Shown: in pieces, positions 1 to 16,770 of the stretch
How positions within the stretch are numbered: the stretch's first letter is position 1
Layout: every line of letters starts with the position of its first letter
Assembly (NCBI GenBank): GCA_020633315.1
Contig: JACKDV010000004.1
Span: 320,071 to 384,070, forward strand
Direction of reading: 5' to 3'
DNA length: 64,000 bases
From: Myxococcales bacterium
GTDB taxonomy: Bacteria; Myxococcota_A; Polyangia; Nannocystales; Nannocystaceae
Made by a program: the position numbers and the translations under genes
Notes under the pieces: generated by a model
Databases searched by the model: none
Seen by the model: the letters and a program-made list of their open reading frames with translations, nothing else
What the model was told of the DNA's origin: nothing

Positions 1-3000
1 CAGGGCGGAGACAGTAACGCCACAGCGGGAGCCCGGTGGGGCCTATCTCGCTTCAATGGGGCCGCCCTGCGAGCAGGGCGGAGACCGGGGGTGCCGGGAA
101 CCGGGGTCACGGCGTTGATGGTGCTTCAATGGGGCCGCCCTGCGAGCAGGGCGGAGACCGGTGAACGTGAGGGCGTGCGGCGAGCCTGCGTGAGCTTCAA
201 TGGGGCCGCCCTGCGAGCAGGGGCGGAGACCTCTCGTTCGCGGCCATCGAGAGAGCGAGGTTCACGCTTCAATGGGGCCGCCCTGCGAGCAGGGCGGAGA
301 CCTCGATTGACTTGAAAGTCAATCAGGTTTTCAACAGTGCTTCAATGGGGCCGCCCTGCGAGCAGGGCGAGACAGCTGGTGGCGACCTCGCACTGCTCCT
401 CTCGGCGGAGCTTCACGGCCCGCCCTGCGAGCAGGGCGGAGACTGGAGCTGATCAAGCGCTCCAAGGCCCGGGGTGGGCTTCAATGGGGCCGCCCTGCGA
501 GCAGGGCGGAGACGGATGACCGTCACCGCGGCGCCCACGGCCGAGGCGGCTTCAATGGGGCCGCCCTGCGAGCAGGGCGGAGACAACGTGGAGCGCGTCG
601 AAGAGAGGAAGAACGATGAAGCTTCAATGGGGCCGCCCTGCGAGCAGGGCGAGACACCCCGCAAGGGAAGGCGCTCACGACTGTGGGCCGCTTCAATGGG
701 GCCGCCCTGCGAGCAGGGCGGAGACCCCACCGCATGAAGAACCGTGCGCAGAACATCCGCAAGCTTCAATGGGGCCGCCCTGCGAGCAGGGCGGAGAACT
801 CCCTCGCGCCGCACGATGTCGCCATACGATTCCATGCTTCAATGGGGCCGCCCGCCCTGCGAGCAGGGCGGAACACGCCATGTGATAGCCTCCGCCGTGG
901 CTATCTCACGCTTCAATGGGGCCGCCCTGCGAGCAGGGCGGAGACCGGCCCGCTCGACGTGACCCCGACGCTGCTGATCTGGCTTCAATGGGGCCGCCCT
1001 GCGAGCAGGGCGGAGACCTGGACAAGCGAGGCGCCCACGACCTCGCCGGAAGGCTTCAATGGGGCCGCCCTGCGAGCAGGGCGGAGACGTGACCACAGGG
1101 TACCTGAGTCCGACGGCGAGTGCGGCTTCAATGGGGCCGCCCTGCGAGCAGGGGCGGAGACCGAGGAGAAGAGCACCGACCGCCCCACCCGGGGAAGCTT
1201 CAATGGGGCCGCCCTGCGAGCAGGGCGGAGACCGGGCTCTTCGTTCAGGTTGCGCTGCGTCTGTCGTCGTGTGCTTCAATGGGGCCGCCCTGCGAGCAGG
1301 GCGGAGACGCCATGGCGGGCATGTCCGGCGGGTTCGTGGGCCAGCTTCAATGGGGCCGCCCTGCGAGCAGGGCGGAGACGAGGTGCTCGACCGCGAACGA
1401 CCTTGGCCGACGAGCGCTTCAATGACGCCGCCCTGCGAGCAGGGCGGAGACGCGGCGAAGCTTCATGGCTGGCGTGTCGATGGAGCTTCAATGGGGCCGC
1501 CCTGCGAGCAGGGCGGAGACGCCCTTGGGCGGCGGCCGGATCGGGTGCGGATCACGCTTCAATGGGGCCGCCCTGCGAGCAGGGCGGAGACAACGGCGTC
1601 AGGCTGCGCAAGCGGAGCGTCAGGCGGCGCTTCAATGGGGCCCGCCCTGCGAGCAGGGCGGAGACGGATGTCTGAGCGTGTCGGCTTGGTCGCGGCACCC
1701 CGCTTCAATGGGGCCGCCCTGCGAGCAGGGCGGAGACGGGTCGCCGGGAGCGTGGTCGGCGGCACGGGATCGGGGCTTCAATGGGGCCGCCCTGCGAGCA
1801 GGGCGGAGACACACCTTTCCTCGCCGACGTCCAGCTCGACCACGACCTGCTTCAATGGGGCCGCCCTGCGGAGCAGGGCGGAGACCTCCGGTCCCCAGTC
1901 GTCCGGGATGTCCGTGTCGGCTTCAATGGGGCCGCCCTGCGAGCAGGGCGGAGACGCGCCAGGAGCCCACACCCACGCACCCCGGAGGCTTCAATGGGGC
2001 CGCCCTGCGAGCAGGGCGGAGACGAGCCGGGCGAGGTGGTGCTCGACATCATCGAGGCGCTTCAATGGGGCCGCCCTGCGAGCAGGGCGGAGACAGGGTC
2101 GGGCCTTTGCGGTGTGAGCACTCCAAGCGTGGAAGCTTCAATGGGGCCGCCCTGCGAGCAGGGCGGAGACGCGAGCAGGTGGCACGCGATGATTCTGGGC
2201 GAGGTGCTTCAATGGGGCCGCCCTGCGAGCAGGGCGGAGACAGCTCGGCGAGCGAGCCGGGTCCACCCGTCGACCGTGCTTCAATGGGGCCGCCCTGCGA
2301 GCAGGGCGGAGACCTTGAGAACACGACGCCATGCCCAATCGCTACCGCGTGCTGCTTCAATGGGGCCGCCCTGCGAGCAGGGCGGAGACGATCCCGCTTC
2401 CGCGGCCTCGGTCGCCGTCACGCGGCTTCAATGGGGCCGCCCTGCGAGCAGGGCGGAGACACACGAGCTTTCGTTGCCCTCCAGGCATACTGCGAGGCTT
2501 CAATGGGGCCGCCCTGCGAGCAGGGCGGAGACTCGGTCAGACTCCAAACACGGCGCGATCGGCCTCGAGCTTCAATGGGGCCGCCCTGCGAGCAGCAGGG
2601 CGGAGACTTGCGTAGCTGGTACAGCAGCTACGCACAGCACGACAGCTTCAATGGGGCCGCCCTGCGAGCAGGGCGGAGACGCGCGGCAAGCGTCTGGAGA
2701 TGCGCCCCGTTGAGTACGCTTCAATGGGGCCGCCCTGCGAGCAGGGCGGAGACGGGCCTCTTGCCGCGGCGCGGCCAGCATTCAGGTCGGCTTCAATGGG
2801 GCCGCCCTGCGAGCAGGGCGGAGACGTGGTAGCTCTGTACGAGCTGCTCCCGCAGGTGGAGGCTTCAATGGGGCCGCCCTGCGAGCAGGGCGGAGACATC
2901 TCATGCACGGCCTCTGGCTCCTCGGGGTACCCATAGCTTCAATGGGGCCGCCCTGCGAGCAGGGCGGAGACTCAGCGGATCCCGACCTGGACCCCATCGA

Positions 3001-3831
3001 CCGCTGCTTCAATGGGGCCGCCCTGCGAGCAGGGCGGAGACGCCGATGTCGATCACCCACCGGCCGAGGTACTCGCGCACGCTTCAATGGGGCCGCCCTG
3101 CGAGCAGGGCGGAGACATCCTGGCCCGTCCCGAGTGGGGCCCCATCATCGGGCTTCAATGGGGCCGCCCTGCGAGCAGGGGCGGAGACCCGCACAGGCAT
3201 GGTCGAGGGTATGGATCAGGGGCTTCAATGGGGCCGCCCTGCGAGCAGGGCGGAGACACACCATGACCCGGCAGCTCTGGGGCCTGACCCTGCGGCTTCA
3301 TGGGGCCGCCCTGCGAGCAGGGCGGAGACCGCAGGCGATCCATCGAGTCGACCGGATGCTCCGCCCTGCCCCGCCTGCGAGCAGGGCGGAGACCGAGGCA
3401 TCGAGCGAGCGGTGCGGGACCGGGCTTCAATGGGGCGGCTGCGACAGGGCGGAGACCGAGGCGTTCCCGCGCGCAGGCGACCATGGGCTTCACGGGGCCG
3501 CCTGCGAGCAGGGCGGAGACAGGGAGCGGACCCTGACGGTGCGCAGCCCTGCGAGCAGGGCGGAGACGAAAATCCTCGACCGGACCCGTGGGCGGCCCTT
3601 CAATGGGCAGCCGCCCTGCGAGCAGGGCGGAGACGACCGATCCCGCGCATCAATCCCCGCGGCCGCCTGCGGGGACGAACACGGCCACTTCAATGCGGGC
3701 ATGAGCCCGCCCTGCGAGCAGGGCGCGGGCGAGCACGGGCGGAGACGAGGCCGATCCCTTGCCGCAGGTCGACCAATGGGAGCCGCCCTGCGCTTCGGAG
3801 AATGGGGCCGCCCTGCGAGCAGGGCGGAGAC
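1..3831 (-). CRISPR. CRISPR array of about 54 repeat units. It runs off the window at position 1. The 36-bp repeat on the + strand is GCTTCAATGGGGCCGCCCTGCGAGCAGGGCGGAGAC (reverse complement GTCTCCGCCCTGCTCGCAGGGCGGCCCCATTGAAGC). Spacers are 35-38 bp. The last ~9 units (3296-3831) are progressively degenerate.
   Basis: Read directly: the repeat recurs more than 45 times with a 72-74 bp period. The six-frame track shows its recurring translations (LQWGRPASRAET, FNGAALRAGRR, SMGPPCEQGGD). The strand call rests on the reverse-complement repeat ending ATTGAAGC, which resembles the ATTGAAA(C/G) 3' handle of I-C and I-G repeats, plus an 8-bp stem CCGCCCTG/CAGGGCGG. Polarity is not certain; see findings. 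Confidence 0.95.
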
Positions 3832-4421
3832 TGCCGGTCCGCAACAGCTTACCATCATTGCCATTCTCGACCACCAATTCACGCGACCACCAAAACCGAC
3901 ATATCCCCGGTCCCGTGTTCAACACCTATGCAGTTCCCAGACATCATCGTAGCCCCCCTTGGCACTCGGAATTCTCCACTTTGCACGCAAGACCGGGGTT
4001 TCGCACGGCGAGATGCCGCGTGATTTCCAGTCACCCTATCACACCCACCGACCCCCCCACCATACCGGAGATCCCGCGGCCATGCCCGCGCCAATGCCTC
4101 GCAGCACCTCCCCGGACCTCCCGCTCGCCGATTCCACAGGCCATCGAGACCTCCCGGAACATCCCCAACCCCATTGCACTGCGCCCCGTGACCTCCCGGG
4201 ACATCTCCAACCCCACCGCACGGCCCGTCGAGACCTCCTGGGCATCCCCAACCCCATTGCACTGCGCCCCGCGACCTCCCCGGGTCTCTCCAATCCCCCA
4301 TGCACAGCCCCGCCGGATCTCCCGGGACCTCGCGCCCCTGACCCCTTCGAGCCAATCGCACTTTTTCGTCGACCCGCAGTGATCGAATCCCGTCCTCGCG
4401 CCACGTTACCTCCACACCGTC
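3832..4421. promoter_or_regulatory. Non-coding flank between the array and cas4-cas1. It is AT-richer next to the last repeat and has a C-rich top strand. It would be the leader if the array is transcribed from the minus strand.
   Basis: No credible ORF. The two + strand ORFs (3759..4382, 3959..4525) are proline-rich, low-complexity translations of C-rich DNA. Composition shifts immediately after the last repeat. Confidence 0.4.
4140..4312. repeat. Two tandem imperfect direct repeats of about 83 bp (about 80 % identical). The core is CGAGACCTCC..ATCCCCAACCCCATTGCACTGCGCCCCG(T/C)GACCTCCCGGG.
   Basis: Seen by eye: copy A starts near 4145 and copy B near 4228, each with the shared core ATCCCCAACCCCATTGCACTGCGCCCCG. 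Confidence 0.7.
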
Positions 4422-6272
4422 ATGCCCGAGCGCATCCGCCATTCACCGCCCAGCGAGTCTGCCGATCTCGTCCCCGTACGAATGTGCAACGAGCTGGTCT
4501 ACTGCGAGCGTTTGTTCTACCTTGAGCACGTCCAGGGCTACTTCGTCGACTCCTCCGACACGGTGCACGGCCGCTCCCAGCACGAGCGCGCCGCGACCAA
4601 GGGCCGCACCACCACCGTCACCCCTCCCACGGCCGAGCCCGACCCCGACGACCCCACCCTCTCCGAGCTGCTCGAGGCTCCCCGCCGCTGCGTCACCCTG
4701 GAGTCCGCCAGCCTCGGCGTGCGTGGCCAGGTCGACCTCGTCGAGCTGCACGACGACGAGGCGGTGATCATCGAGGCCAAGCACGGTGCATCGCCGTCCC
4801 ACGACGACCACCGCTGGTACGACCATCCCCTGCCCTACCGCGCCTGGCCGGCCGACGTGGCCCAGCTCGGCCTCTACATGGCGCTGCTGCGCGAGTCGGG
4901 CGTGCCCTGCCACCGCGCCCAGCTGCTGTACCGCAAGGACCGTCACCGCACCGAGATCCCCTGGTCCGCGGAGCTCGAGCGCTTCGTCCACGCAGTGGTC
5001 CGGCGCGCCCGCGAGGTGGCAGCGCTGCCCAAGCCCCCGGCCCCGCTCGAGCTCAGCCCCAAGTGCCCGCGCTGCTCGCTGCACACCATCTGCCTCCCCG
5101 ACGAGCACCTCGCCCTCGCCCGCGAGGCGGCCGGACAGACCGTGCCGCCGCTGCGCCGCATCGTGCCCGGCGCGGACGACCGCGCGGTGCTCCACGTGCT
5201 CACTCCCGGCAGCGCCCTGCGCAAGGACGGCCAGGGCATTCGCCTCAGCGTGCGTGGGATCCCCGATCCGCAGCGGATCCTCGTCAAGGATCTGGCCCAG
5301 GTCGCCCTGTACGGGCCCAGCCAGATCACCGCGCAGTGCATGACGATGCTGCTGCTCGAGGACGTCCCCGTGGCCCACCACACGGGCTCCGGCCGCCTGC
5401 TGGGCATGACGATGCCGCTGGCCACCCGCAACGTCACCCTGCGTCGCGCCCAGTTCCGCACCGCCGACGATCCCGAGCGCTGCCTCGTCGCCGCCCGAGC
5501 CCTGGTCGTGGCCAAGATCCGCAACCAGCGAACCGTGCTCCGCCGCTACCGCACGGGTCACACCGCCGACGATCCCCTCGACGAGCGGCTCCCGGCCTGG
5601 GCCGATCCCACCGCCGACGATCCCGAGACCCAGGCCGCCGTGGAGCAGCGCGCCACCACCATCGGCGAGGCGCTCGCCCGCATGCGCAACGCCTGGCGCG
5701 GCGCCCAGCGAGCCACGGACATCGACGCCCTACGCGGCCACGAGGGCGACGCCGCCGCGACCTACTTCGGCGCCCTGCCCTCGATCCTGCCCGCCCCGTG
5801 GCCCGACGAGCTGCGCGGACGCTCGCGTCGCCCGCCTCGCGATCGCGTCAACGCCATGCTCGGCTTCGGCTACGCCATGCTCACCCGCGACGCCACCGCG
5901 GCCCTCGGTCGCGTGGGCCTCGATCCCATGGTCGGCCTGTTCCACACCACCATCCCCGGCCGCCCGGCCCTGGCCCTCGATCTGCTCGAGCCCTTCCGCC
6001 CCGCCTGGGTCGATGCCTCCATCCTGCGCCTGCTCGCCACGGGTGGGATCACCCCGGAGTGCTTCATCCGCTCCGGCGACGGTGTGTTCCTCACCGATCC
6101 CGGCCGCCGCGCCCTGGTGGCCGCCTACGAGCGCCGCGCCGACGAGCGGATCACCCACCCTCGCTTCGGCTACCGCATGAGCTACCGCCGCATGCTCGAG
6201 CTCGAGGCCCGCGTGCTCGCCAAGTGGATGGCCGGCGAGATCGACGAATTCTCTCCCCTGCTCACCCGCTAG
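4422..6272 (+). CDS. cas4/cas1: Cas4-Cas1 fusion protein (616 aa)
   Basis: The N-terminal part is Cas4-like (RecB-family nuclease) with an N-terminal Cys and a C-terminal Cys cluster (KCPRCSLHTIC) that fits a 4Fe-4S site. The C-terminal 330 aa are Cas1-like. It lies immediately upstream of cas2. A Cas4/Cas1 fusion is typical of type I-G (I-U). Confidence 0.85.
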   Translation: MPERIRHSPPSESADLVPVRMCNELVYCERLFYLEHVQGYFVDSSDTVHGRSQHERAATKGRTTTVTPPTAEPDPDDPTLSELLEAPRRCVTLESASLGVRGQVDLVELHDDEAVIIEAKHGASPSHDDHRWYDHPLPYRAWPADVAQLGLYMALLRESGVPCHRAQLLYRKDRHRTEIPWSAELERFVHAVVRRAREVAALPKPPAPLELSPKCPRCSLHTICLPDEHLALAREAAGQTVPPLRRIVPGADDRAVLHVLTPGSALRKDGQGIRLSVRGIPDPQRILVKDLAQVALYGPSQITAQCMTMLLLEDVPVAHHTGSGRLLGMTMPLATRNVTLRRAQFRTADDPERCLVAARALVVAKIRNQRTVLRRYRTGHTADDPLDERLPAWADPTADDPETQAAVEQRATTIGEALARMRNAWRGAQRATDIDALRGHEGDAAATYFGALPSILPAPWPDELRGRSRRPPRDRVNAMLGFGYAMLTRDATAALGRVGLDPMVGLFHTTIPGRPALALDLLEPFRPAWVDASILRLLATGGITPECFIRSGDGVFLTDPGRRALVAAYERRADERITHPRFGYRMSYRRMLELEARVLAKWMAGEIDEFSPLLTR

Positions 6273-6276
6273 CCCG

Positions 6277-6573
6277 ATGCGCCATCACTTCATCGTGGCC
6301 TATGACATCAGCGATCCCCAGCGCCTCCGCCAGGTCCACAAGACCGTGCGTGACTTCGGCACGCCGCTCCAGCTCTCCGTGTTCGCCTGTACCCTCTCTT
6401 CCCTCGACCGCGCCACCTTGCAGGCACGCCTGCTGACGATCATCGACACCACCGCCGACCAGGTGATGTTCGTGCGCCTCGCCCCGGTCCACCCCGGTGA
6501 CACCCGCCCCCCCGGCTGCGAGACCCTCGGCCGGCCCCTGCGAGCTCGGATCGACAGCGCCATCGTGACCTGA
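6277..6573 (+). CDS. cas2: Cas2 (98 aa)
   Basis: The N-terminus HFIVAYDISDPQRLRQVHKTVRDFGTPLQLSVFAC matches the Cas2 pattern (V.YDI...R..v.k.L..yG.r.Q.SVFeC). It starts 4 bp after cas4/cas1. Confidence 0.9.
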   Translation: MRHHFIVAYDISDPQRLRQVHKTVRDFGTPLQLSVFACTLSSLDRATLQARLLTIIDTTADQVMFVRLAPVHPGDTRPPGCETLGRPLRARIDSAIVT

Positions 6574-7104
6574 TCACCTCGGCCCACTTCGGGGCTCGCC
6601 GAACCCGAGACCCCTCTGCTCTACTCCGGTGCCCCGATATGCCAACCTGATCGACCGTCTTTAGTCACTCATCTCCCAGTCATGAACCCAGACGGATGAC
6701 CTGACTTCAACAGCGACGGCAATAGAGCCCCCTGGTACGAGATTCAGCTGATGACTGTCTCTCGCGCCGCGAAGACGCTCGATTTCTGTTGACAGAGTAG
6801 GTAGGTGGGGTTCACCCTCCGAGCATGGCAGGGTCAAAGTACTACGGAGGCGTCCGGCCCGTAAAGAGAATTTTCAGGAACCTCATCGAGGTACTGGCCT
6901 GGCTGCTCTTCCCCAACCCAGAACCTCCCCAACAGCCACCAAAACCTCCGCCTCAGAAGCCGCCTATCGGCTTCTAGAAAGTCCAACAACTTCCTCATGG
7001 ACACGGGGCGGCCCCATTGAAGTCGGGCCGGTCGTCTGCGGAGTACACCAGCCAACACCAATTTCCGCCCCGGTCCGCCTAGCCGACCACAGGTCCCCCC
7101 CGTC
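6574..7104 (+). promoter_or_regulatory. AT-rich intergenic region after cas2, about 530 bp. It is leader-like, contains a TTGACA hexamer near 6790, and is probably the promoter region of the cas7-cas5/6-cas3-cas8 operon.
   Basis: GC is markedly lower than the flanking genes and there is no credible ORF. The minus-strand ORF 6834..7214 is an artefact that reads through the repeat remnant. Confidence 0.5.
7001..7023 (+). repeat. Solitary degenerate CRISPR repeat remnant in the opposite orientation to the main array. A 17-nt stretch, GGGCGGCCCCATTGAAG, matches the reverse-complement repeat exactly.
   Basis: Read directly: ACACGGGGCGGCCCCATTGAAGTC versus repeat reverse complement ..CGCAGGGCGGCCCCATTGAAGC. 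The minus-strand ORF translation here contains LQWGRP, the peptide signature of the repeat. Confidence 0.75.
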
Positions 7105-8295
7105 ATGACCGCTCCCACGCCCACCGTCGATTCCCTCCACGCCGCCGTCACCGGTGACGTGGTGGCCTTCCGCCTCCGCGCCCGTCTCCAGCCCGCCGGA
7201 GGCCCCGGGGACAAGGTGTTCCCGCCGACCTACGCCACGGGCCAGGATGACCGCGACCACGAGACCAAGTACGCCACCGAGGAGCGCATGATCGACGGCC
7301 GTCGCGTGCCCTCGGTGCTGCTCGACTCGGTCGCCTCGCAGGCCAACCGCATGGAGCTGGCCCTGCTCCGGGCCCGTGAGCGCGACGGCCTGAGCCTGCC
7401 CCTGATCGCGGTGGACTTCGGGCCCACCCTGCCCGAGCTCGGCCGGATCAGCGCGCTCGAGGCCCCCCACCGCGTCTACGATGCGATCCTGCGCGATGCC
7501 ACCCTCGACGGCACGGCCTTCCGCGCCTCGGAGCTCGGCCGCCGCCTCACCGATGCCAGCCCGTCCGACGCCCGAGCGATGCTCGAGCACTGCCCCACCG
7601 CCCTGCTCTTCGGCGCCTGGGACTCCACCGGCCCCCGCGGCGGCCGAGGTCACAAGTTCCAGCGCGCGCTGGTCAGCGAGGTGGTCGGCATCGACTTCGC
7701 GACGGGCACCAAGGTGGGCAGTCGCATCGACCCGCTGCAGATCTCGGCCAGCGTGCGCCTGAGCATCCCCAAGGAAGACTCCGACGCATGGACCGTGGAC
7801 GCCACCGGCAAGTCCAAGCAGCGCCCGTCCGAGGTCAACCACTCCAACATCGCCCCCACCCGCGACGGGGAGGCCGGCGGGGTCACCCTCGACCACGCGC
7901 TGCACACCGCAGTGCTGTCCCTGCCCGCCCTGCGACGGCTTCGCTTCGGCAACTGGGACGACGCCCGCAGCGACGCCGCCCGCACCCTGCTGGCCGCGCT
8001 GGGCCTGCTCGCCCTCGTGCTGCAGCGCCGGGTCGGCTACGACTTCCGCAGCCGCTGCACCCTGGTGCCCGAGGGCCCCGTGGCGCTCGAGCAGGTGGGC
8101 GCCGACGGCAGCCGCGACCCCCTGCCCCTGTCGGTCGCCGAGGCCCGTGCCCTCTTCGATGCCGCGCTCGCCCGCGCCCGCGAGCAGGGCGTGCCCTGGG
8201 CCGAGGACGAGGTGGTGCTTCGGCCCATGCCCAAGCTGGTGCAGCTGGTCGAGGCGAGCCAGCAGCTCATGGCCGCGGGTGGCCCGGCGGACTGA
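7105..8295 (+). CDS. cas7: Cas7 of type I-G (Csb1 / GSU0053-like), 396 aa
   Basis: Its size and its position immediately upstream of the Csb2 homologue match the csb1-csb2 pair of I-G/I-U systems. I could not verify the family match by hand. Confidence 0.55.
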   Translation: MTAPTPTVDSLHAAVTGDVVAFRLRARLQPAGGPGDKVFPPTYATGQDDRDHETKYATEERMIDGRRVPSVLLDSVASQANRMELALLRARERDGLSLPLIAVDFGPTLPELGRISALEAPHRVYDAILRDATLDGTAFRASELGRRLTDASPSDARAMLEHCPTALLFGAWDSTGPRGGRGHKFQRALVSEVVGIDFATGTKVGSRIDPLQISASVRLSIPKEDSDAWTVDATGKSKQRPSEVNHSNIAPTRDGEAGGVTLDHALHTAVLSLPALRRLRFGNWDDARSDAARTLLAALGLLALVLQRRVGYDFRSRCTLVPEGPVALEQVGADGSRDPLPLSVAEARALFDAALARAREQGVPWAEDEVVLRPMPKLVQLVEASQQLMAAGGPAD

Positions 8296-9898
8296 GATGC
8301 TCTGCCTGCGCCTGGAGCTGCTCACGGGTCGCTATGTGGCCTGTGCGTTCAACGATCGCGATCGCGTGGAGTGGCCCCCCCACCCCGCGCGCGTGTTCTC
8401 GGCCCTGGTCGCCGCGCTGCACGACGGCGAGCCCCTCGAGGCGGAGCGGGCGGCCCTGCGCTGGCTCGAGTCGCTGCCGCCCCCCGCCCTGCACCACTCC
8501 CCCGCCTCGGTGCGTGACGCCAAGGTCTTCTACGTGCCCGTCAACGACAAGGCCCTCACCGACAAGGCCACCGTGAGCAACGCCTGGGCCCGCGTCCTCG
8601 ATCCTGCGCTGCCCCCCAAGGCGCGGGCCAAGGCCGAGGCACGCCTGGCCGACGCCTACGAAAAGGCCGGCGCCACCGAGGCCACGCGGCCCAAGAAGGT
8701 GCGCGAGATCGTCGACCACCTGCTGCCGCACAGCCGCACCAAGCAGCCCCGAGCCTTCCCCTCGGCGACCCCACACGACCCCGCGGTGTGGCTGTGCTGG
8801 GACGCCGAGCCCGAGCCCTCCGTCCGCGCCGGGCTGGAGGCGCTGCTGCGCCGGCTCGTCCGCCTCGGCCACAGCAGCTCCATGGTCGCGGCCCGCCTGG
8901 TCGACGATGCCCCGGCCCCGGCCTTGCGGCCCGACCCCGAGGGGCCCGAGCGGCTGCGCTGGGTGGGCCCGGGACAGCTGGCCGCCCTCGAGGCGCTCCA
9001 CGCCGCCGCCCCCTACTCCGAGCAGCGGGTGATGCCCTACGTGGTGGCCCGCTACCGCCACGCCGAGGCACGCACCGAGCCCGCGCGCTCGAGCTTTGCG
9101 GCCGACTTCCTCGTGCTGCGCCGGGTGGATGGACCGCGGCTGCCCGTGCTGGCCACCGAGCGCGTGGCCGATGCGGTGCGCCGGGCCCTGATGGCCCACG
9201 CCGAGGATCCCCGCGCACCGCTGCTGTCGGGCCACGCCCCCGACGGCGCGCCCCTGCAGGACGACCACCTGGCCGTGGTCCCGCTGCCCTTCGTCGGGGC
9301 TCGCCACGCCACCGGTGATCTGCTCGGCGTGGCGCTGGTGCCCCCCGCCGGGCTCTCGCGCGGCCAGCTGCGCCCGCTCCATGCCGCTCTGGCCCGCTGG
9401 GAGGCCGCGGGTGGCGAGCCCAGGGGGCAAGACCCGCGCTGCGTGCTCAACCTGGGTCGGCTCGGCCGGTGGACGCTCGAGCGCAGCCTCGAGCCCTCGC
9501 CGCTCCACAACCTGCGCGAGCCCGCCTGGACCCGCCTCGATCGCCGCTGGGTGAGCGTCACCCCGGTGCTGCTCGATCGCCACCCGGGCTCGCTCGGCGA
9601 CCCCAAGCCCTCGGCCCGGCGCCGGGCCGTGCGACGAGCCGACGAGATCATCTCCGCCGCCTGCGAGCGCATCGGGCTGCCGGCGCCCGAGCGCATCGAG
9701 CTCTCGCTCGATCCTCCGCTGCGCGGCACCGAGCCCGCCCCTCGCTTCGAGGCATGCCGTCGCGACCCCGCCGACCGCCGCCCGCTGCTGCACCTTCGGC
9801 TCACCTTCCCCCGGCCGGTCGGCGGCCCCGTGCTGCTGGGAGCCGGCCGCTACCGCGGCCTGGGCCTGCTGCGTCCCATGGGAGGCGAAGCCCCGTGA
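8285..9898 (+). CDS. csb2: Cas5/Cas6 fusion of type I-G (Csb2 / GSU0054-like), about 537 aa
   Basis: The N-terminus MLCLRLELLTGRYVACAFNDRDRVEWPPHPARVFSALVAAL matches the Csb2 signature (GRYHA...VEWPPSPwRLfrALVA). Start is taken at the internal Met, so the gene overlaps the end of cas7 by 11 bp. Confidence 0.8.
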   Translation, partial: RRTEMLCLRLELLTGRYVACAFNDRDRVEWPPHPARVFSALVAALHDGEPLEAERAALRWLESLPPPALHHSPASVRDAKVFYVPVNDKALTDKATVSNAWARVLDPALPPKARAKAEARLADAYEKAGATEATRPKKVREIVDHLLPHSRTKQPRAFPSATPHDPAVWLCWDAEPEPSVRAGLEALLRRLVRLGHSSSMVAARLVDDAPAPALRPDPEGPERLRWVGPGQLAALEALHAAAPYSEQRVMPYVVARYRHAEARTEPARSSFAADFLVLRRVDGPRLPVLATERVADAVRRALMAHAEDPRAPLLSGHAPDGAPLQDDHLAVVPLPFVGARHATGDLLGVALVPPAGLSRGQLRPLHAALARWEAAGGEPRGQDPRCVLNLGRLGRWTLERSLEPSPLHNLREPAWTRLDRRWVSVTPVLLDRHPGSLGDPKPSARRRAVRRADEIISAACERIGLPAPERIELSLDPPLRGTEPAPRFEACRRDPADRRPLLHLRLTFPRPVGGPVLLGAGRYRGLGLLRPMGGEAP

Positions 9899-12726
9899 GC
9901 GCTCCCCCGGCCACGCTCTCGGCCGACGACTTCGCCGCCTTCGTTCGCGAGGTGACGGGCCACGATCCCTTCCCCTGGCAGCGGCGATTGCTCCGTACCG
10001 TGCTCGACGACGGCTGGCCCGACCTGCTCGACCTCCCCACCGGGACCGGCAAGACCACCGCCATCCTCGTGGCCCTGTTCGCGCTCGCCCTGCACCCCCA
10101 GCGCTTCCCTCGGCGGATCGCCCTGGTGGTGGACCGGCGGATCATCGTCGATCAGGTCGACGGCTACGCCCGTCGGATCCGCACCGCCCTCGACGACGAC
10201 GCGCGCCCCACTGGCCGCCGCGTGGCCCAGCACCTGCGCGCGCTGGCCTCGGCCCCCGATGTCGACCCCGTCCGCGTGGTGCACCTGCGCGGTGGCATCC
10301 TCCGCGACGACGCCTGGCTGGGCACGCCCGACCAGCCCACCATCCTCGCCTCCACCGTCGACCAGGTGGGCTCGCGGCTGCTGTTTCGCGGCTACGGCGT
10401 GTCGGAGAGCATGCGCCCGGTCCACGCCGGCGTGCTGGCCCGCGACACCCTCTACCTGCTCGACGAGGTCCACCTCGCCACCGCCTTCGAGGAGACCCTC
10501 TCGCGGCTCCAGGGCACCTACGCCGCGTGGGCCGAGCGCCGCACCGGGCGACCGCTGACCGTCGTCCGCATGAGCGCCACCGCCCGCACCACGGGCCCGC
10601 CGGCGCGGACGAGCTTCGGCCTGGACGACGACGACCGCCGGCACCCCGTGCTCGCGCGGCGGCTCGGCGTGTCGCGCCTGGCCACGCTCGAGTGGGTGCC
10701 CACCCGCGCGGGCACCGACGCGAGCAGCCAGGCCCGCAACCGGGAGCTGCTGGCCCAGATCGCGATCGAGCGCGTCGAGCAGGCCCTCGCCGAGGGGGCC
10801 AGCTCGGTGGGCGTGGTGCTCAACCGCGTGGACACGGCCCGCCGCGCCGCGGCCCGGCTCGAGGGACGCGACGAGCTCGAGCTCGAGCTGCTCACCGGGC
10901 GCATGCGAGCCTGGGAGAAGACCGCCACGCAGGCGCGGGTGCAGCAGCGGGTGGGCGCCGGCGTGCCTCGCCCGAAGGGAGCGCGCCCGGTGGTGGTCGT
11001 GGCCACGAGCTGCATCGAGGCCGGCGCCGACCTGGACTTCGATGCGCTCGTCACCGAGGCCGCCAGCCTCGATGCCCTGCGGCAGCGCTTCGGCCGTCTG
11101 AACCGCCTGGGCGAGCACGGCCGTAGCTGGGCGTGGATCCTCGGGCGCAAGGATCAGCTCGGCGCCCGGGCCGAGCCCGACCCGATCTACGGCGAGGCCC
11201 TGCGCAACACCTGGGCCTACCTCGAACAGCTCGCCGACGACGGCCGCGTCGACTTCGGCCTCGAGGCCCTGCCCCTGCCGCCGCCCGACCGGGGCGCCAG
11301 CCTGCTGCCTCCGAGCCCGGAGGCGCCCGTGCTGTTCCCCAGCGTGCTCGACATGTGGGCCGAGACCCGGCCCGCGCCGCACCCCGACCCGGATCCCTCG
11401 CTGTGGCTGCACGGCAAGGGACGGCCGGCCGAGCGCGACGTACAGCTGGTGTTCCGGGCCGACCTGCCCCCAGCCACCGATGACGAGGCCGTGCGCTCGC
11501 GTGCAGCCGAGGCCCTCGAGCGCCTGCCGCCGGTGAGTGACGAGGCCGTCGACGTCCGCCTCGGCCGGGAGCTACGGGACGTGCTCGGCTCGGGTCCCGT
11601 GTGGCGCTGGACCGCCGCGGGGCTCGAGGCGGTCGGCCCCGATGCGCTGCGTCCCGGCGATACCGTGATCATGGACGCTCGCGCCGGCGGCCTGCGCCGG
11701 GGCACCTGGGATCCCGCCGCCGACCGGCCCGTGTCCGATCTGGCCGAGCGAGCGCTGTGGGCCACGCGGGGCCTGGCTCGGCTGCGGCTGTCGAAGGCCA
11801 CGCTGCCCGAGCCGCTCCACGCTGGTCTGCCGGCCCCGCCGAGCGCCGACGATCCCGAGGGCCTCGAGCCCACGCGAGCCGAGCACGAGGCATGGCTCGA
11901 CGGCCTGGCCGCTCGCCTCGATGGCGTCGATGCCAGCTGGCATCCGCTGCTGCGCGCCATCGCCGGGGCCGGTCGACACCGCCGGCTGCTCCTGGGCATC
12001 GACGGCGCGGGCCAGCCCATGGCGTGGGTCCTCGTAGCACCTCCCCGGCGTGCGGCCGAAGCCACCACCGAGGATGCGGTCTCCGCCTTCAGCGGGCTCG
12101 AGGTCGCGCTGCACGATCACCTCGCCGACGTGGAGGCATGGGCCGAAGCCTTCGCCACCGGGGCGGGGCTCGGGCCCGAGCTCGCGGCCGACCTCGCCCT
12201 CGCCGGCCTGCTGCACGACCTGGGTAAGGCCGACCCTCGCTTCCAGGCCCTGCTGCGCGGCGGCGATCCCATCGCGGCCGTCGGCGGCCCGCCCCTGGCC
12301 AAGTCGCGGCAGCTCGGCTCGGTGCAGACCCGGGCCCGTGCCGAGCAGCGCAGCGGCTGGCCCCCCGGGCTGCGCCACGAGCTGGTCTCGCTCGCCCTGC
12401 TCGACGCCAGCGAGGCCCTCCGCGCCCGCGCCCACGACCTCGAGCTGGTGCGCCACCTCGTCGCCAGCCACCACGGCTGGTGTCGCCCCTGGGTCCCCGC
12501 GATGCTCGACCCCGAGCCCACCGTGGTGCGGGTGCAGATCGCCGGCATCGCGGCCGAGGTCCGCACCGACGCGCTCGACGACGCCTTCGGGGCCCGGTGT
12601 GCCGCTCGCTTCCATCGCCTGTGTCGTCGCTACGGCTGGCACGGGCTCGCCTACCTCGAGGCCCTGCTGCGGCTGGGAGATCATCGCGCCAGCGCCACGC
12701 CGGGCGCCCGACCGGAGGCATCGTGA
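9895..12726 (+). CDS. cas3: Cas3 helicase with C-terminal HD nuclease domain (about 943 aa)
   Basis: It has Walker A DLPTGTGKT and a DEVH box (LLDEVHL). A C-terminal HD motif (LLHDLGKADPRFQ) is present. A C-terminal HD domain is characteristic of type I-G Cas3. The GTG start overlaps the csb2 stop (GTGA). Confidence 0.85.
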   Translation: MSAPPATLSADDFAAFVREVTGHDPFPWQRRLLRTVLDDGWPDLLDLPTGTGKTTAILVALFALALHPQRFPRRIALVVDRRIIVDQVDGYARRIRTALDDDARPTGRRVAQHLRALASAPDVDPVRVVHLRGGILRDDAWLGTPDQPTILASTVDQVGSRLLFRGYGVSESMRPVHAGVLARDTLYLLDEVHLATAFEETLSRLQGTYAAWAERRTGRPLTVVRMSATARTTGPPARTSFGLDDDDRRHPVLARRLGVSRLATLEWVPTRAGTDASSQARNRELLAQIAIERVEQALAEGASSVGVVLNRVDTARRAAARLEGRDELELELLTGRMRAWEKTATQARVQQRVGAGVPRPKGARPVVVVATSCIEAGADLDFDALVTEAASLDALRQRFGRLNRLGEHGRSWAWILGRKDQLGARAEPDPIYGEALRNTWAYLEQLADDGRVDFGLEALPLPPPDRGASLLPPSPEAPVLFPSVLDMWAETRPAPHPDPDPSLWLHGKGRPAERDVQLVFRADLPPATDDEAVRSRAAEALERLPPVSDEAVDVRLGRELRDVLGSGPVWRWTAAGLEAVGPDALRPGDTVIMDARAGGLRRGTWDPAADRPVSDLAERALWATRGLARLRLSKATLPEPLHAGLPAPPSADDPEGLEPTRAEHEAWLDGLAARLDGVDASWHPLLRAIAGAGRHRRLLLGIDGAGQPMAWVLVAPPRRAAEATTEDAVSAFSGLEVALHDHLADVEAWAEAFATGAGLGPELAADLALAGLLHDLGKADPRFQALLRGGDPIAAVGGPPLAKSRQLGSVQTRARAEQRSGWPPGLRHELVSLALLDASEALRARAHDLELVRHLVASHHGWCRPWVPAMLDPEPTVVRVQIAGIAAEVRTDALDDAFGARCAARFHRLCRRYGWHGLAYLEALLRLGDHRASATPGARPEAS

Positions 12727-13739
12727 CCCACGACGCACATCCCCTGCCCCTGCCTGGCCTGGACGGCCTCGATCCGCTGGGCTTCCTCGCGGCGCTGGGC
12801 TGCCTGGTGGCCACCACCGAGCACAGTCGGGCCGAGGGAGCGCGCGAGCCCTCGATGAGCTGGCAGCTGGGCGGACGACCGATCCCCGTGCTGCACGGAC
12901 CGTGGGGCCATGGGGACGCGTTGGTCGAGGTCCTCCACGACGACCTCCGCCGGCTGGCCGGGCGCGGGTCCGACGAAGAGTCGAGAGCTCCGAGGGATCC
13001 GTTCCTCGAGCTGTCGTATCCCGATGCCGACGGCAAGCCCGTGCACGATCTCAAGCCACCGCCCTCGGTGCTGCGGGAGCTCGCGCAGGGGCTGGTGGAT
13101 CAGGCCACGCCGGAGCGACGGCGGACGGTCGACTGGCTGTCCGCCGTGCTGACCGACGTGGCCGTGGATGGCAGCGGCGCGGCCAAGCCCTTTGCCCTGC
13201 ACTTCACCGCGGGCCAGCAGCGCTTCGGCGTGGTGGCGCTCGAGCTGCTCGACGGCAAGGCCGGGGCCAAGCCCGGCTCAGCGGGGCGGCCGGTCGACGC
13301 CGAGGACCTGCGGATCGCCCTGCACGGGCCGTGGCCCGACGATCGCACGCTCAAGGTGTTCGGCTGGAGCCCCACGCAGGATCGTGCCTATGCGCTGCGA
13401 GCCGTCGACCCCTCGGGCGACACCAAGCTCGGCACCCCCGGCGCCGACTGGCTGGCGCTGCGGGGGATCGGGCTGCTGAGCAGCGCGCCCGTGCGGGATC
13501 GGATCGCCACCAGCGGCGTGCACGGGAGCTGGAAGCGCGGCACCTGGAGCTACCCGCTGTGGCCGATGCCGCTGACGGCCGAGGTGGCACGATCGCTGCT
13601 GCGACATCCATCGGTGGCCCCGCCCGACGAGCGGCGAGGCAGCAGCACCCTGCCGCTCGGGGTGGAGGTGCTCACCTGCCGGATCACGCGCTCCGAGCAG
13701 GGTGGCTACGGAGCGCTGTCGCGACCCTCTCGGGGATGA
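12723..13739 (+). CDS. cas8u2: Cas8u2/Csx17-like large-subunit candidate. It is short, about 338 aa, and possibly truncated.
   Basis: The N-terminus ..LPGLDGLDPLGFLAALGCLVATTEH resembles the Csx17 N-terminal motif. It is the last gene of the cas operon and its GTG start overlaps the cas3 stop. Length is about half of typical Csx17 proteins. Confidence 0.45.
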   Translation: MTHDAHPLPLPGLDGLDPLGFLAALGCLVATTEHSRAEGAREPSMSWQLGGRPIPVLHGPWGHGDALVEVLHDDLRRLAGRGSDEESRAPRDPFLELSYPDADGKPVHDLKPPPSVLRELAQGLVDQATPERRRTVDWLSAVLTDVAVDGSGAAKPFALHFTAGQQRFGVVALELLDGKAGAKPGSAGRPVDAEDLRIALHGPWPDDRTLKVFGWSPTQDRAYALRAVDPSGDTKLGTPGADWLALRGIGLLSSAPVRDRIATSGVHGSWKRGTWSYPLWPMPLTAEVARSLLRHPSVAPPDERRGSSTLPLGVEVLTCRITRSEQGGYGALSRPSRG

Positions 13740-13898
13740 GCCGGCACGCCCCCACCCATTGGACCGGAACCTATGATCTCAGTCGCACGGTCGGGCACTT
13801 CATCGATCGCTGGCGACACTGCCCGACGTACCGGTCGAGCTGGTGCTCGCGGTGGACGAGCCGTCTCGCGTCGACATCCGACCCGATGGAGAATACTC

Positions 13899-14081
13899 AT
13901 GACAGCGAATTCGATATCCGACGCACCACTGCCCGATCGCCTCCGCCGGCTGCGAGACCTGCGGCTGGACGGCCTGGTGGAGCGTGACATCGCCGTACGC
14001 CTGGCCCTGCTGGCGATGCTGGCTGGCGAGCACCTACTGCTCATCGGGCCGCCTGGGACCGCCAAGAGCCTGATCTTCTAG
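13899..14081 (+). pseudogene. N-terminal fragment (60 aa) of a RavA/MoxR-type AAA+ ATPase gene, ending in a premature stop
   Basis: LPDRLRRLRDLRLDGLVERDIAVRLALLAMLAGEHLLLIGPPGTAKSLIF* aligns with the E. coli RavA N-terminus (..[38 protein letters not shown]) but stops inside the Walker A region. It is embedded in AT-rich non-coding DNA (13740-14275). Confidence 0.6.
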
Positions 14082-14274: not shown

Positions 14275-16770
14275 GTGACCACGCGAGCGCGATCGATGGT
14301 GGAGGCGCTCCCCTCGGCGCCGCTGAATCTCGGTCGATATCGCCTACTCGGCGAGATCGGGCGAGGAGGCATGGCCGAGGTGTGGCTCGCCAGCACCACC
14401 GGCCCCACCGGTGTGCACAAGCTGCTGGTGATCAAGCGGCTCAAGCGAGGCCACGAGGACGAGCCCGAGCTCGTGACGATGTTCCTCGACGAGGCCCGCA
14501 TCGCGGTGCGCCTGGCCCACCCCAACGTGGTGCAGACCTACGAGGTCGACACCGACGACGGCCTGCCGTTCATCGCGATGGAGTACCTCGACGGTCAGCC
14601 GCTGCACCGGGTGCTCCGGCGCTTCGCGAGGCGAGGCGGCCTCTCCCGCGATCTTCGGCTGTGGATGCTGGCCGAGCTGCTGCAGGGCCTCCACCATGCT
14701 CACGAGCTGCGCGACTACGACGGGACCCCGCTGCGCGTCGTCCACCGCGACGTCAACCCGCAGAACGTCTTGGTCACCTTCCACGGCGAGATCAAGCTGA
14801 TGGACTTCGGCATCGCGAAGGCGATGGACTCGGTGGCGCACACCGACGTGGGCATGTTCAAGGGCAAGCTGGCCTACATGGCGCCCGAGCAGGCCCGCGG
14901 CGGCACCGAGCTCGACCGACGCGTCGACCTCTTCGCGGTGGGCGTGATGATGTGGGAGGCGCTGACCGAGGAGCGCATGTGGGGCGGACGCACCGACATC
15001 GAGATCGCCACCGCGCTCTGTGAGGGCTGGGTGCCGCCGCTGCCCGAGTCGGCGTCGATTCCCGATCCGCTCCGCGAGATCTGCACCAAGGCGATCGCCG
15101 TGGATCCCGACGCTCGATGGCCGGACGCCGCCTCGATGCACGAGGCGCTGCGAGACTGGCTCGACGAGCACGGCGGCGCCCCGAGCCCCGCGGCCCTCGG
15201 CCGGTCGATGGCCGAGTGCTTCACCGATGAACGCGCCCGCCGAGAGGTCCTGATCCAGCGCCACGCCCGTGATCCCACGGGAGCCGCCCCCGACCGCGGG
15301 TGGGATCCGCCTGTCTCCTCACCCGAGGACGAGACGCGCCGGATCACGCCGCCGCTCCCCACGACCCGCCCCGTCCCGATGGTGTCCGAGCCTCCCCCGT
15401 CCTCGACCCGGCCCCGCCGGTGGTGGGCGGCCGCGGCCCTGGTCGGAGCAGCCAGTCTCGCCGCCGTCGCGACGGCGCTCGTGCACGACTCGCCGGACGA
15501 CGCCGAGCCGACGGTGGCCTCCGATCCGAGGGAGGATCCCGAGGCGAGCACGAGGGCGTCCCCCACCGCCGAGCCCTCCTCGACGGGGACCCGCTGCACC
15601 ACCGAGGGTCCTCCCGTCGAGCTGACCGGTGAGCTGGAGGCCGACGCGACCCTCGGCTGCGATCGCCGATACCTGCTGCGCTACACCGTCCGCGTCCCGC
15701 GTGGAGTCACCCTCACCATCGAGCCCGGCACCACGATCCTCGGAGATCCGGTGACCAAGGGCACCCTGGTGGTCCAGCCCGGAGGGCGGCTGGTGGCCGA
15801 GGGGCGGGCCGACGCGCCCATCGTGCTCACGAGCGCCCTGCCCGAGGGACGACGGGCTCCGGGGGACTGGGGTGGAGTGCTGGTGCTGGGGCACGCTCCG
15901 ATCAACCTCCGCGACCACGCTGGCCAGCCGATCCTCGGCCGGGTGGAGGGCCTGACCGAGGGCGGGACCTTCGGCGGTGACGACCCGGACGACGACAGCG
16001 GGGTCCTCCGCTACCTCCGCATCGAGTACAGCGGAGTGGAGCTGGCCCCCAACAACGAGGTCAACGGCTTGACCCTCGCCGGGGTGGGCCGCGGGACCCG
16101 GCTCGACCACGTCCAGGTGCGACACACCGCCGACGATTGCTTCGAGTTCTTTGGCGGCACCGTCTCGGGCTCGCACCTGCTGTGCGACGACCCGGGGGAC
16201 GACGGCTTCGACTGGGATCTCGGCTACCAGGGAGAGCTGCGCTTCCTCGTCGTGCGGGCCCTAGACCCCGGGCGTGGGCAGCACGGGATCGAGGGAGACG
16301 GCGACCCCCGGGGTGAGCGGGCAGAGCCCCGCAGTCGCCCGCACGTCTCCAACGCGACCGTCTGCGGCACGACGAGCCGCGGGGCTCCGCGCTTCGGCAT
16401 GCTGCTGCGTCGGGGCACCGACGCCCGCGTCGAGCGCTCGGTGGTGCTGGGCTTCGACGCCACGATCGAGCTGCGCGATCGCTTCACCACCCTGACCCTC
16501 GAGGACTCGGTGCTCGGGCTCCCGCTGGTGGACCCGGCCGGCGCCGCCGAGCGACCGTTCGACCTCGAGGCGATGCTCCGCGCCCCCGAGCGTCTCCACG
16601 CGATCGGGGCACCGGCGGACCTCGACTGCGCGAGCCCGTCGATCGACGCCCTGCGACCGGAGCGACCCCTGCGAGCCGAGGATCCCGACGGCCAGACGAG
16701 CTACCGGGGGGCCTTCCGCGACCGCGACGATCGCTGGGACGAGGGCTGGGCGGTGTGGAGCGACGATTGA
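14275..16770 (+). CDS. Ser/Thr protein kinase (Hanks-type) with a C-terminal beta-helix-like domain, 831 aa
   Basis: Kinase motifs GEIGRGGMAEVW, HRDVNPQNVLV, DFGIAKA and YMAPEQ are present. The C-terminal 400 aa are Gly-rich repeats resembling a parallel beta-helix. Confidence 0.85.
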   Translation: MTTRARSMVEALPSAPLNLGRYRLLGEIGRGGMAEVWLASTTGPTGVHKLLVIKRLKRGHEDEPELVTMFLDEARIAVRLAHPNVVQTYEVDTDDGLPFIAMEYLDGQPLHRVLRRFARRGGLSRDLRLWMLAELLQGLHHAHELRDYDGTPLRVVHRDVNPQNVLVTFHGEIKLMDFGIAKAMDSVAHTDVGMFKGKLAYMAPEQARGGTELDRRVDLFAVGVMMWEALTEERMWGGRTDIEIATALCEGWVPPLPESASIPDPLREICTKAIAVDPDARWPDAASMHEALRDWLDEHGGAPSPAALGRSMAECFTDERARREVLIQRHARDPTGAAPDRGWDPPVSSPEDETRRITPPLPTTRPVPMVSEPPPSSTRPRRWWAAAALVGAASLAAVATALVHDSPDDAEPTVASDPREDPEASTRASPTAEPSSTGTRCTTEGPPVELTGELEADATLGCDRRYLLRYTVRVPRGVTLTIEPGTTILGDPVTKGTLVVQPGGRLVAEGRADAPIVLTSALPEGRRAPGDWGGVLVLGHAPINLRDHAGQPILGRVEGLTEGGTFGGDDPDDDSGVLRYLRIEYSGVELAPNNEVNGLTLAGVGRGTRLDHVQVRHTADDCFEFFGGTVSGSHLLCDDPGDDGFDWDLGYQGELRFLVVRALDPGRGQHGIEGDGDPRGERAEPRSRPHVSNATVCGTTSRGAPRFGMLLRRGTDARVERSVVLGFDATIELRDRFTTLTLEDSVLGLPLVDPAGAAERPFDLEAMLRAPERLHAIGAPADLDCASPSIDALRPERPLRAEDPDGQTSYRGAFRDRDDRWDEGWAVWSDD

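Follow-up and report, generated by a model that had tools for sequence, protein, structure and literature searches.

A strain-variable, degenerate mini-CRISPR with a candidate self-target between cas2 and cas7 of a myxobacterial type I-G locus

The DNA analyzed here is a stretch of 64,000 nucleotides (nt) from a Myxococcales bacterium (contig JACKDV010000004.1 of assembly GCA_020633315.1, positions 320,071 to 384,070), referred to below as the window, which carries a type I-G CRISPR (clustered and regularly interspaced short palindromic repeats) locus. In the 531-bp gap between cas2 and cas7 of this locus lies a solitary remnant of the CRISPR repeat. We propose, with a probability of roughly 60%, that this remnant forms the opening pseudo-repeat of a degenerate mini-CRISPR, which would encode an RNA of the CreR or CRISPR RNA (crRNA)-like RNA (crlRNA) kind and repress transcription into cas7-csb2-cas3. 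The kind is already known, from CreR and CreA as well as from mini-arrays and standalone repeats, and the element in the window is an additional member of it, in subtype I-G. Its less ordinary aspects are the presence or absence of the whole module at the strain level and its hairpin-less pseudo-repeats with complementary halves.

The remnant contains GGGCGGCCCCATTGAAG at positions 7006-7022 of the plus strand, identical at 17 of 17 positions. This is the sole copy outside the array, and the 44 copies within the array all lie on the minus strand; the chance expectation of a match with at most two mismatches is 0.04. Aligned from its 3′ end with the 36-nt repeat GTCTCCGCCCTGCTCGCAGGGCGGCCCCATTGAAGC, the remnant is identical at 18 of 19 positions over 7004-7022, a segment that spans the 3′ half of the stem (CGGGGCGG, compared to CAGGGCGG in the resident repeat), a CCCC linker, and the handle sequence ATTGAAG. 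The last repeat base, at 7023, is T in the remnant and C in the repeat. Only the 3′ 19-20 nt of the repeat are present, and the DNA preceding 7004 bears no relation to its 5′ half. Pseudo-repeat 1 (7004-7023, plus strand) can be written as CGGGGCGG-CCCC-ATTGAAGT, corresponding to the 3′ stem half, a 4-nt linker, and an 8-nt 5′ handle, which reads ATTGAAGT here and ATTGAAGC in the resident repeat. It is followed by a 37-nt pseudo-spacer (7024-7060, plus strand; CGGGCCGGTCGTCTGCGGAGTACACCAGCCAACACCA) of the same length as the array spacers, and by pseudo-repeat 2 (7061-7076, plus strand; ATTTCCGCCCCGGTCC), which comprises a 5′ part only and matches the 5′ end of the repeat at 11 of 16 positions. 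This succession of pseudo-repeat, pseudo-spacer, and pseudo-repeat is the layout of a putative degenerate mini-array.

A preliminary description of the region had already recorded several of its properties, and these were recovered in the present analysis: the 17-nt repeat match outside the array, its orientation opposite to that of the array, a content of guanine and cytosine (GC) lower than that of the surroundings (0.56-0.57 across 6600-6999 compared to 0.70-0.79 in the flanking genes), and a cas7 start about 80 bp beyond the remnant (cas2 ends at 6573, and cas7g starts at 7105, 81 nt after the remnant). It had overlooked two features, namely the second repeat-like piece at 7061-7076 and a reverse complement of 19 of 23 positions at 6839-6861.

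The stem half in pseudo-repeat 2, CCGCCCCG (7065-7072), is exactly complementary to CGGGGCGG (7004-7011) in pseudo-repeat 1. Compared to the resident repeat, the two halves show a compensated change at one base pair, which is T:A in the repeat and C:G in the remnant. RNA folding pairs the two halves across the pseudo-spacer (z = -2.7). The compensated change suggests that the unit originated from another, related I-G repeat rather than from a copy of the resident one; alternatively, selection may maintain the pairing between the two stem halves. In type I-G systems, the cut made by Csb2 lies 4 nt 3′ of the base of the hairpin, which generates an 8-nt 5′ handle (PMC9638904). With this cut site, a guide produced from the element would start at A7016 and its spacer part at 7024.

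A protospacer-like target of the pseudo-spacer (6825-6861, minus strand) is located upstream of both the guide and cas7, at distances of about 160 bp and 244 bp, respectively. Positions 1-23 of the guide, corresponding to 6861 down to 6839, match at 19 of 23 and the rest is unmatched, so that pairing potential begins at guide position 1 and does not extend beyond position 23. Immediately 5′ of protospacer position 1 is the trinucleotide 5′-TTA-3′ (6862-6864, minus strand), in exact register with the pairing. The protospacer-adjacent motif (PAM) of type I-G is given as TTN in PMC9638904, which cites PMC6547450 for it. The site at 6839-6861 is the best 23-nt match to the pseudo-spacer in the window, and the guide/target pair heads the inverted repeats that an independent repeat finder lists for the region (I1). 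When the guide was shuffled, a match of at least 16 of 20 positions within 1 kb was obtained in 0.4% of trials (P = 0.004), with the PAM not counted; the background of TT dinucleotides within the same 1 kb is 2.6%. The element retains an intact handle, PAM, 8-nt seed, and register. In the passages on this point in the literature, partial pairing beside a valid PAM is what separates regulatory crRNA-like RNAs from immune crRNAs (bioRxiv 10.1101/2024.01.05.574328; PMC10120712; bioRxiv 10.1101/2023.03.10.532045). Chance similarity between guide and target was considered and rejected on the grounds of the exact register, the PAM, and the class-level controls described next.

The same design recurs across other type I-G loci. 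For comparison, 80 I-G loci were gathered via a Cas7g alignment. Many of these loci carry a lone repeat 3′ end (..CCCCATTGAAGN) on either strand, 80-800 bp upstream of cas7. The 20 nt that follow this end have 15-18 matches to a nearby site, and TTN is present at 18 of the 19 best sites. A blind scan was performed on 75 I-G loci, taking handle-like sites outside arrays and at most 1 kb upstream of cas7 and scoring a target as a match of at least 15 of 20 positions with TTN; such a target was detected for 13 of 22 handle-like sites, compared to 37 of 20,462 control starts.

Across 16 non-redundant loci, the mismatch rate between guide and target is 65% at positions 6, 12, and 18 but 10% elsewhere within positions 1-18, and it rises to 63% at positions 19-30; the concentration at 6, 12, and 18 yields a Fisher test value of 2e-15. 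The Cas7 backbone in type I-G presents five bases and flips the sixth (PMC9638904), and the periodic pattern matches the footprint of such a backbone. The mismatch profile implies selection for only about 18 nt of pairing. Guide and target also co-vary in six related Dehalococcoidia loci. Of 92 positions that differ between loci, 64 preserve the guide-target match within both loci compared, and the best partner of each guide is the target of its own locus. In the set of loci with a hand-picked element plus a detected target, the target precedes cas7 in 18 of 18 cases and, read in the direction of the pseudo-repeat, also lies upstream of the latter. Some of the targets coincide in part with a consensus promoter, an example being TTGACA-17-TAAACT in L052 (loci and contigs are designated by L numbers), and that in L071 is positioned 55 nt upstream of a consensus promoter.

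Most other I-G mini-arrays keep hairpins in both pseudo-repeats, and their second pseudo-repeat has a spoiled handle. A second pseudo-repeat with a perfect hairpin and a spoiled handle (ATTGACCG, ATTGCAAC, ATTGGCGA, and similar sequences) is seen in L036, L044, L050, L058, L069, L075, and L080; spoiling of this handle would stop a second guide from being made. The window element fits the class with regard to handle, register, PAM, seed, and position, and its hairpins are more degenerate. An exact-pattern scan for handle plus seed (CCATTGAAGNCGGGCCGGNCGNC) gave 0 matches in viral contigs and 5 in metagenome contigs, all of them attributed to chance, with no cas homologue detected on the fetched contigs.

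Guide unit (7004-7076) and target (6825-6864) are both contained in an accessory cassette of 469 bp (6626-7094, plus strand) that shows presence/absence polymorphism. This became apparent in contigs encoding an identical Cas2 or Cas7 (L086-L092). Four metagenome contigs (L087-L090) have the cassette allele and are 100% identical to the window over the cas2-cas7 gap (6561-7115). In the other three (L086, L091, and L092), a GC dinucleotide replaces 6626-7094, and the flanks are 99.75-99.8% identical to the window. The cassette is also absent from L081-L083 and L001-L006. In the outgroup L083, the left-flank motif CTCTGCTGTACT is present and the sequence continues directly to cas7, which indicates that the 469 bp are a derived insertion. 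The comparison identifies the cassette as a recent insertion, with guide and target arriving together. Sister samples within the same study yielded alleles with and without the cassette (WANG18-1 SAMN08389233 versus SAMN08389189; ERZ27309295 versus ERZ27309125), and the two alleles therefore coexist in related communities. Blastn searches with the cassette against phage and plasmid collections returned no match, inspection of its ends for terminal inverted repeats or a target-site duplication yielded nothing convincing, and an Rfam search of 3500-7400 at E values up to 1 found nothing.

The cassette also contains a second TTGAAGT, on the minus strand at 6704-6710. The surrounding region, 6689-6710, resembles the handle and guide start at 7017-7038 in inverted orientation (17 of 22 positions), and the two copies are roughly symmetric relative to the cassette ends. 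The independent repeat finder lists this copy as pair I2. No PAM-flanked target was found for the 37 nt downstream of it, and it was treated as a decayed copy rather than as another guide unit.

Based on these data, a simple model would suggest that the element subjects the effector operon to self-repression. The region between cas2 and cas7 would be transcribed rightwards, either by read-through from cas4/1-cas2 or from a promoter in the cassette, possibly one including TTGACA at 6789-6794 (plus strand). This possible -35 element was read from the sequence and is not followed by a good -10 element; its spacing of 73 nt from the PAM resembles the 67 nt in L031, and the target is located downstream of this lone hexamer. 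The predicted transcript carries an 8-nt handle, AUUGAAGU, the 37-nt guide, and a repeat-like 3′ tail. The guide RNA would be loaded into the I-G Cascade (CRISPR-associated complex for antiviral defense) of the locus itself, consisting of Cas7g, Csb2, and the large subunit, and could pair with 19 of the first 23 positions of the TTA-flanked site (6861-6839). By analogy with the tested CreR and CreA systems, Cascade is expected to bind without licensing cleavage by Cas3, and the bound complex would block RNA polymerase heading into cas7-csb2-cas3. The outcome would be negative feedback, in which effector output falls when Cascade is plentiful and rises when crRNAs or anti-CRISPRs titrate Cascade away. 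Elements resembling CreR and CreA have been predicted for subtype I-U, now I-G, in a one-line mention that refers to a manual search (bioRxiv 10.1101/2023.03.10.532045).

Several observations weigh against this model. Neither pseudo-repeat retains a hairpin, the first being devoid of the 5′ stem half and the second of the 3′ stem half. Since Csb2 binds the 3′ hairpin (PMC9638904), the loss of both hairpins renders processing and Cascade loading uncertain. The mismatches between guide and target in the window fall at positions 9, 12, 15, and 18, not in the cleaner 6/12/18 pattern, and the next-best 23-nt match in the window reaches 18 of 23 compared to 19 of 23, only a modest margin. A strict scan of 6400-7300 for sigma-70 promoters and terminators gave no match, leaving the cassette without a consensus promoter. 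Finally, all cassette copies are identical, and guide and target therefore show no within-lineage covariation.

The loss of both hairpins would also fit an inert relic, that is, a dead fragment of the cas7-upstream regulatory block of another I-G locus, in which guide and target remain similar as too little time has passed for decay, and whose only role would be to separate cas2 from cas7. Such a relic would account for mismatches outside the period (9 and 15), which are more numerous than in typical members of the class, and for the existence of near-identical strains that do without the cassette; the weaker, targetless TTGAAGT copy at 6704-6710 likewise suggests decay within the cassette. 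However, the parts relevant to binding, namely handle, PAM, 8-nt seed, and register, are intact, the stem halves are still perfectly complementary by virtue of the compensated change, and the cassette is identical in four independent assemblies. We consider it rather unlikely that the element is inert.

CreTA is a Cascade-repressed toxin-antitoxin, present in Haloarcula with type I-B and in Acinetobacter with type I-F systems. If the cassette were an addiction module of this kind, Cascade would be steered by the guide RNA to a toxin encoded in the stretch from target to pseudo-repeat and keep it silent, the toxin would be freed once Cascade is lost or inhibited, and the self-contained cassette would spread or persist as a selfish guard of the effector genes. 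Points of likeness are that a self-contained module resides inside a cas cluster, that guide and target travel together, and that a pseudo-spacer between two degenerate repeats partly matches a site next to a small candidate gene. That the cassette is discrete and comes or goes as one piece agrees better with a self-contained module than with control of a cas promoter that existed beforehand. The candidate toxin would be a 50-codon open reading frame (ORF; MAGSKYYGG..., 6825-6977, plus strand), situated between target and pseudo-repeat, or the RNA of that stretch. The 37-nt protospacer ends exactly at the ATG of this ORF, at 6825, the predicted product has a short hydrophobic helix, the codons include the rare AGA, AGG, ATT, and GTA, and L057 has an ORF of similar size at the same position. 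Protein CreT toxins are known (bioRxiv 10.1101/2024.01.05.574328). In contrast to CreTA, however, the window offers no supported toxin gene. The ORF has no ribosome-binding site, no exact record, no Pfam family, and no homologue in a set of 5.8 billion proteins, and it was not called by gene finders in the four cassette-bearing contigs (L087-L090). Moreover, most other I-G examples are too tight to accommodate a toxin, with 27-100 nt from target to pseudo-repeat in L031, L062, L052, and L032. A CreTA-like function of the cassette is, in our estimation, unlikely.

A particular form of this idea, which we regard as a long shot, envisages the insert as a guard module that is mobile and self-contained. 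Its toxin, either a leaderless small protein or an RNA, would be kept silent by a crRNA-like RNA in which the two half-hairpins pair with each other across the guide; the toxin start would coincide with the far end of the protospacer, and the split hairpin would let Csb2 cut the handle and stay bound. If true, such a module would be the first CreTA-type addiction cassette of a type I-G system to be caught as a gain/loss polymorphism between near-identical strains, and would represent a new way of building a processable guide.

The preliminary description had interpreted the remnant differently, as the original junction of cas2, leader, and first repeat, from which an inversion with its breakpoint inside a repeat would have carried the array across cas4-cas1. 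Canonical I-G loci (L010, L011, and L014) do have a leader and array right after cas2 in this orientation, and the lower GC content of the region would be in keeping with a leader, but such a scar is highly improbable: the remnant keeps the wrong half of the repeat, its 3′ end rather than the leader-adjacent 5′ end; the terminal repeat of the array (3796-3831) is not the reciprocal half; blastn (word size 7, E values up to 1) detected no match of 6574-7104 to the array-side region 3831-4421 or to the leaders of relatives; the order of array (minus strand), leader, cas4-cas1, cas2, and cas7 is common to all eight clade relatives and three closer contigs and predates the cassette; and 6626-7094 is missing from strains up to 99.8% identical and from all closer relatives, which does not agree with an old scar. 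Its other suggestion, a decayed second array, holds in so far as the structure is that of a degenerate mini-array, whereas plain decay is at odds with the signature of a regulatory guide.

Experimental evidence for self-repression of cas genes by crRNA-like RNAs exists for types I-B, I-E, and V-A, and for type II-A via tracr-L. For type I-G, we know only of passing bioinformatic mentions. The window element shares with CreR, which was tested in types I-B, I-E, and V-A (bioRxiv 10.1101/2023.03.10.532045), the position of a degenerate mini-CRISPR upstream of effector cas genes and the PAM-proximal partial complementarity to a PAM-flanked upstream site, from which binding without cleavage and autorepression would be expected. 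It differs in belonging to subtype I-G. Its target, not demonstrably a cas promoter, is located in an inserted cassette downstream of cas2, making a roadblock a possible mode of action; in addition, its pseudo-repeats have no hairpins, and the whole module is polymorphic for presence and absence between strains.

With respect to its architecture, the element is the same class of object as the standalone repeats and mini-arrays surveyed by Shmakov et al. 2023 (PMC10120712). In the survey table, type I-G is represented by 235 loci, of which 46% have a standalone repeat and 4% a mini-array; in the portions of that paper relevant here, I-G appears in the table only, and TTN-flanked targets, the 6/12/18 profile, and the position upstream of cas7 are not described. 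The Racr/Cracr viral anti-CRISPR RNAs (bioRxiv 10.1101/2024.10.29.618823) are similarly compact, single-repeat guide units on DNA that is gained and lost, and redirect Cas proteins to a promoter-proximal site. Unlike these, the window unit is chromosomal and located inside the cas locus, has no match in viral contigs or in phage and plasmid collections, and has its target within the same cassette rather than in a resident promoter.

The gap between cas2 and cas7 is variable among relatives, measuring 8 bp in L081 (Cas7 83% identical), 107 bp in L083, or 80-330 bp, and neither the eight clade relatives nor the closer contigs have a repeat remnant in it. In L007 and L008, a 1.2-kb gap encodes a regulator with a winged helix-turn-helix (wHTH) and WYL and WCX domains (L007 8917-9939; L008 8851-9948), a transcription regulator of a type commonly associated with CRISPR. 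The occurrence of this gene in the same gap suggests that the cas2-cas7 junction is a place where control of the effector operon gets installed. The likeness to the wHTH-WYL regulators is confined to this shared position; theirs is a protein and the one proposed here RNA guided, and there is no sequence relationship between the two.

More generally, type I-G gains a testable signature, consisting of a TTN PAM, about 18 nt of pairing with every sixth position free, and a location upstream of cas7 (about one-fifth of the examined loci). The window adds a natural experiment, in that wild strains about 99.8% identical differ by a whole guide-plus-target module; strains with and without the cassette could allow a direct measure of the cost or benefit of RNA-guided autoregulation or toxin guarding. 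For annotation, solitary repeats beside cas genes merit a check for self-targets before they are called decay products.

The main array of the locus (1-3831) reads in crRNA sense on the minus strand, as does its repeat GTCTCCGCCCTGCTCGCAGGGCGGCCCCATTGAAGC, and runs off the start of the window; 35 repeat copies have at most three mismatches. It is followed by the array-side leader and divergent promoter region (3832-4421, minus strand), in which a motif of about 30 nt (gaattctccactttgcacgcaagaccgggg, 3969-4002) is conserved in the array-cas4 spacers of L001, L002, L005, and L006. In those relatives, the last repeat is about 137 nt away from the motif, which probably belongs to the leader or to a divergent promoter, and the fixed distance between the two places the real leader on the array side (3831-4421). 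A C-rich stretch between the leader and the start of cas4/cas1 contains, at 4135-4330, an approximately 84-bp direct repeat (offset 84; 80% identity over 109 nt).

In an edit-distance scan, the eight repeats nearest to cas4/cas1 (3290-3831), which are leader proximal, proved degenerate: they lie at edit distances of 3-13, and their spacers are shortened. In L003 and L007, degenerate repeats occur at the far array end instead. The leader-repeat junction of the window array may be damaged, so that spacer acquisition may have ceased. In L008 (1-8811), the module of array, cas4-cas1, and cas2 is tandemly duplicated upstream of one effector operon, with arrays at 1-2051 and 5556-6330 and cas4/1-cas2 at 2402-4532 and 6681-8811. 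In L005 (Paraliomyxa miuraensis, 9046-10000), cas4/cas1 is reduced to its first 135 codons, cas2 is gone, and hardly anything separates a 60-repeat array from cas7 downstream of it; the locus has apparently lost its adaptation module.

The remaining genes establish the locus as type I-G, with a Cas4/Cas1 fusion, Cas7g (Csb1), Csb2 (a Cas5-Cas6 fusion), and Cas3g. All are encoded on the plus strand: the cas4g/cas1g fusion gene (4422-6272; NF049935, 568 bits), cas2 (6277-6573; TIGR01573), cas7g (csb1; 7105-8295; TIGR02570), which is the first gene of the effector operon, and, downstream of it, csb2 (about 8297-9898) and cas3g (about 9928-12726). Matches of the window proteins to NF049935, TIGR02570, TIGR02165, and TIGR02621 all exceed the curated NCBIfam cut-offs, and the Cas7 protein has its best-named relatives in Enhygromyxa, Paraliomyxa, and Pseudenhygromyxa, which points to a Nannocystaceae-like myxobacterium as the probable host. 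The large subunit was not recognized by any NCBIfam or Pfam profile; the ORF after cas3g, presumably the large subunit Cas8g/Csx17, is without a match in either collection. It is followed by a gene resembling PASTA-type Ser/Thr kinases, with weak matches to models of defense-associated kinases; these genes are at 12050-13987 and 14275-16770. Within the array, repeats at 190-230, 340-375, 835-870, and elsewhere contain single-base insertions or deletions in runs of G or C (for example, GCAGGGGCGGAGAC and GGGCGAGACA), which look like homopolymer sequencing errors rather than biology.

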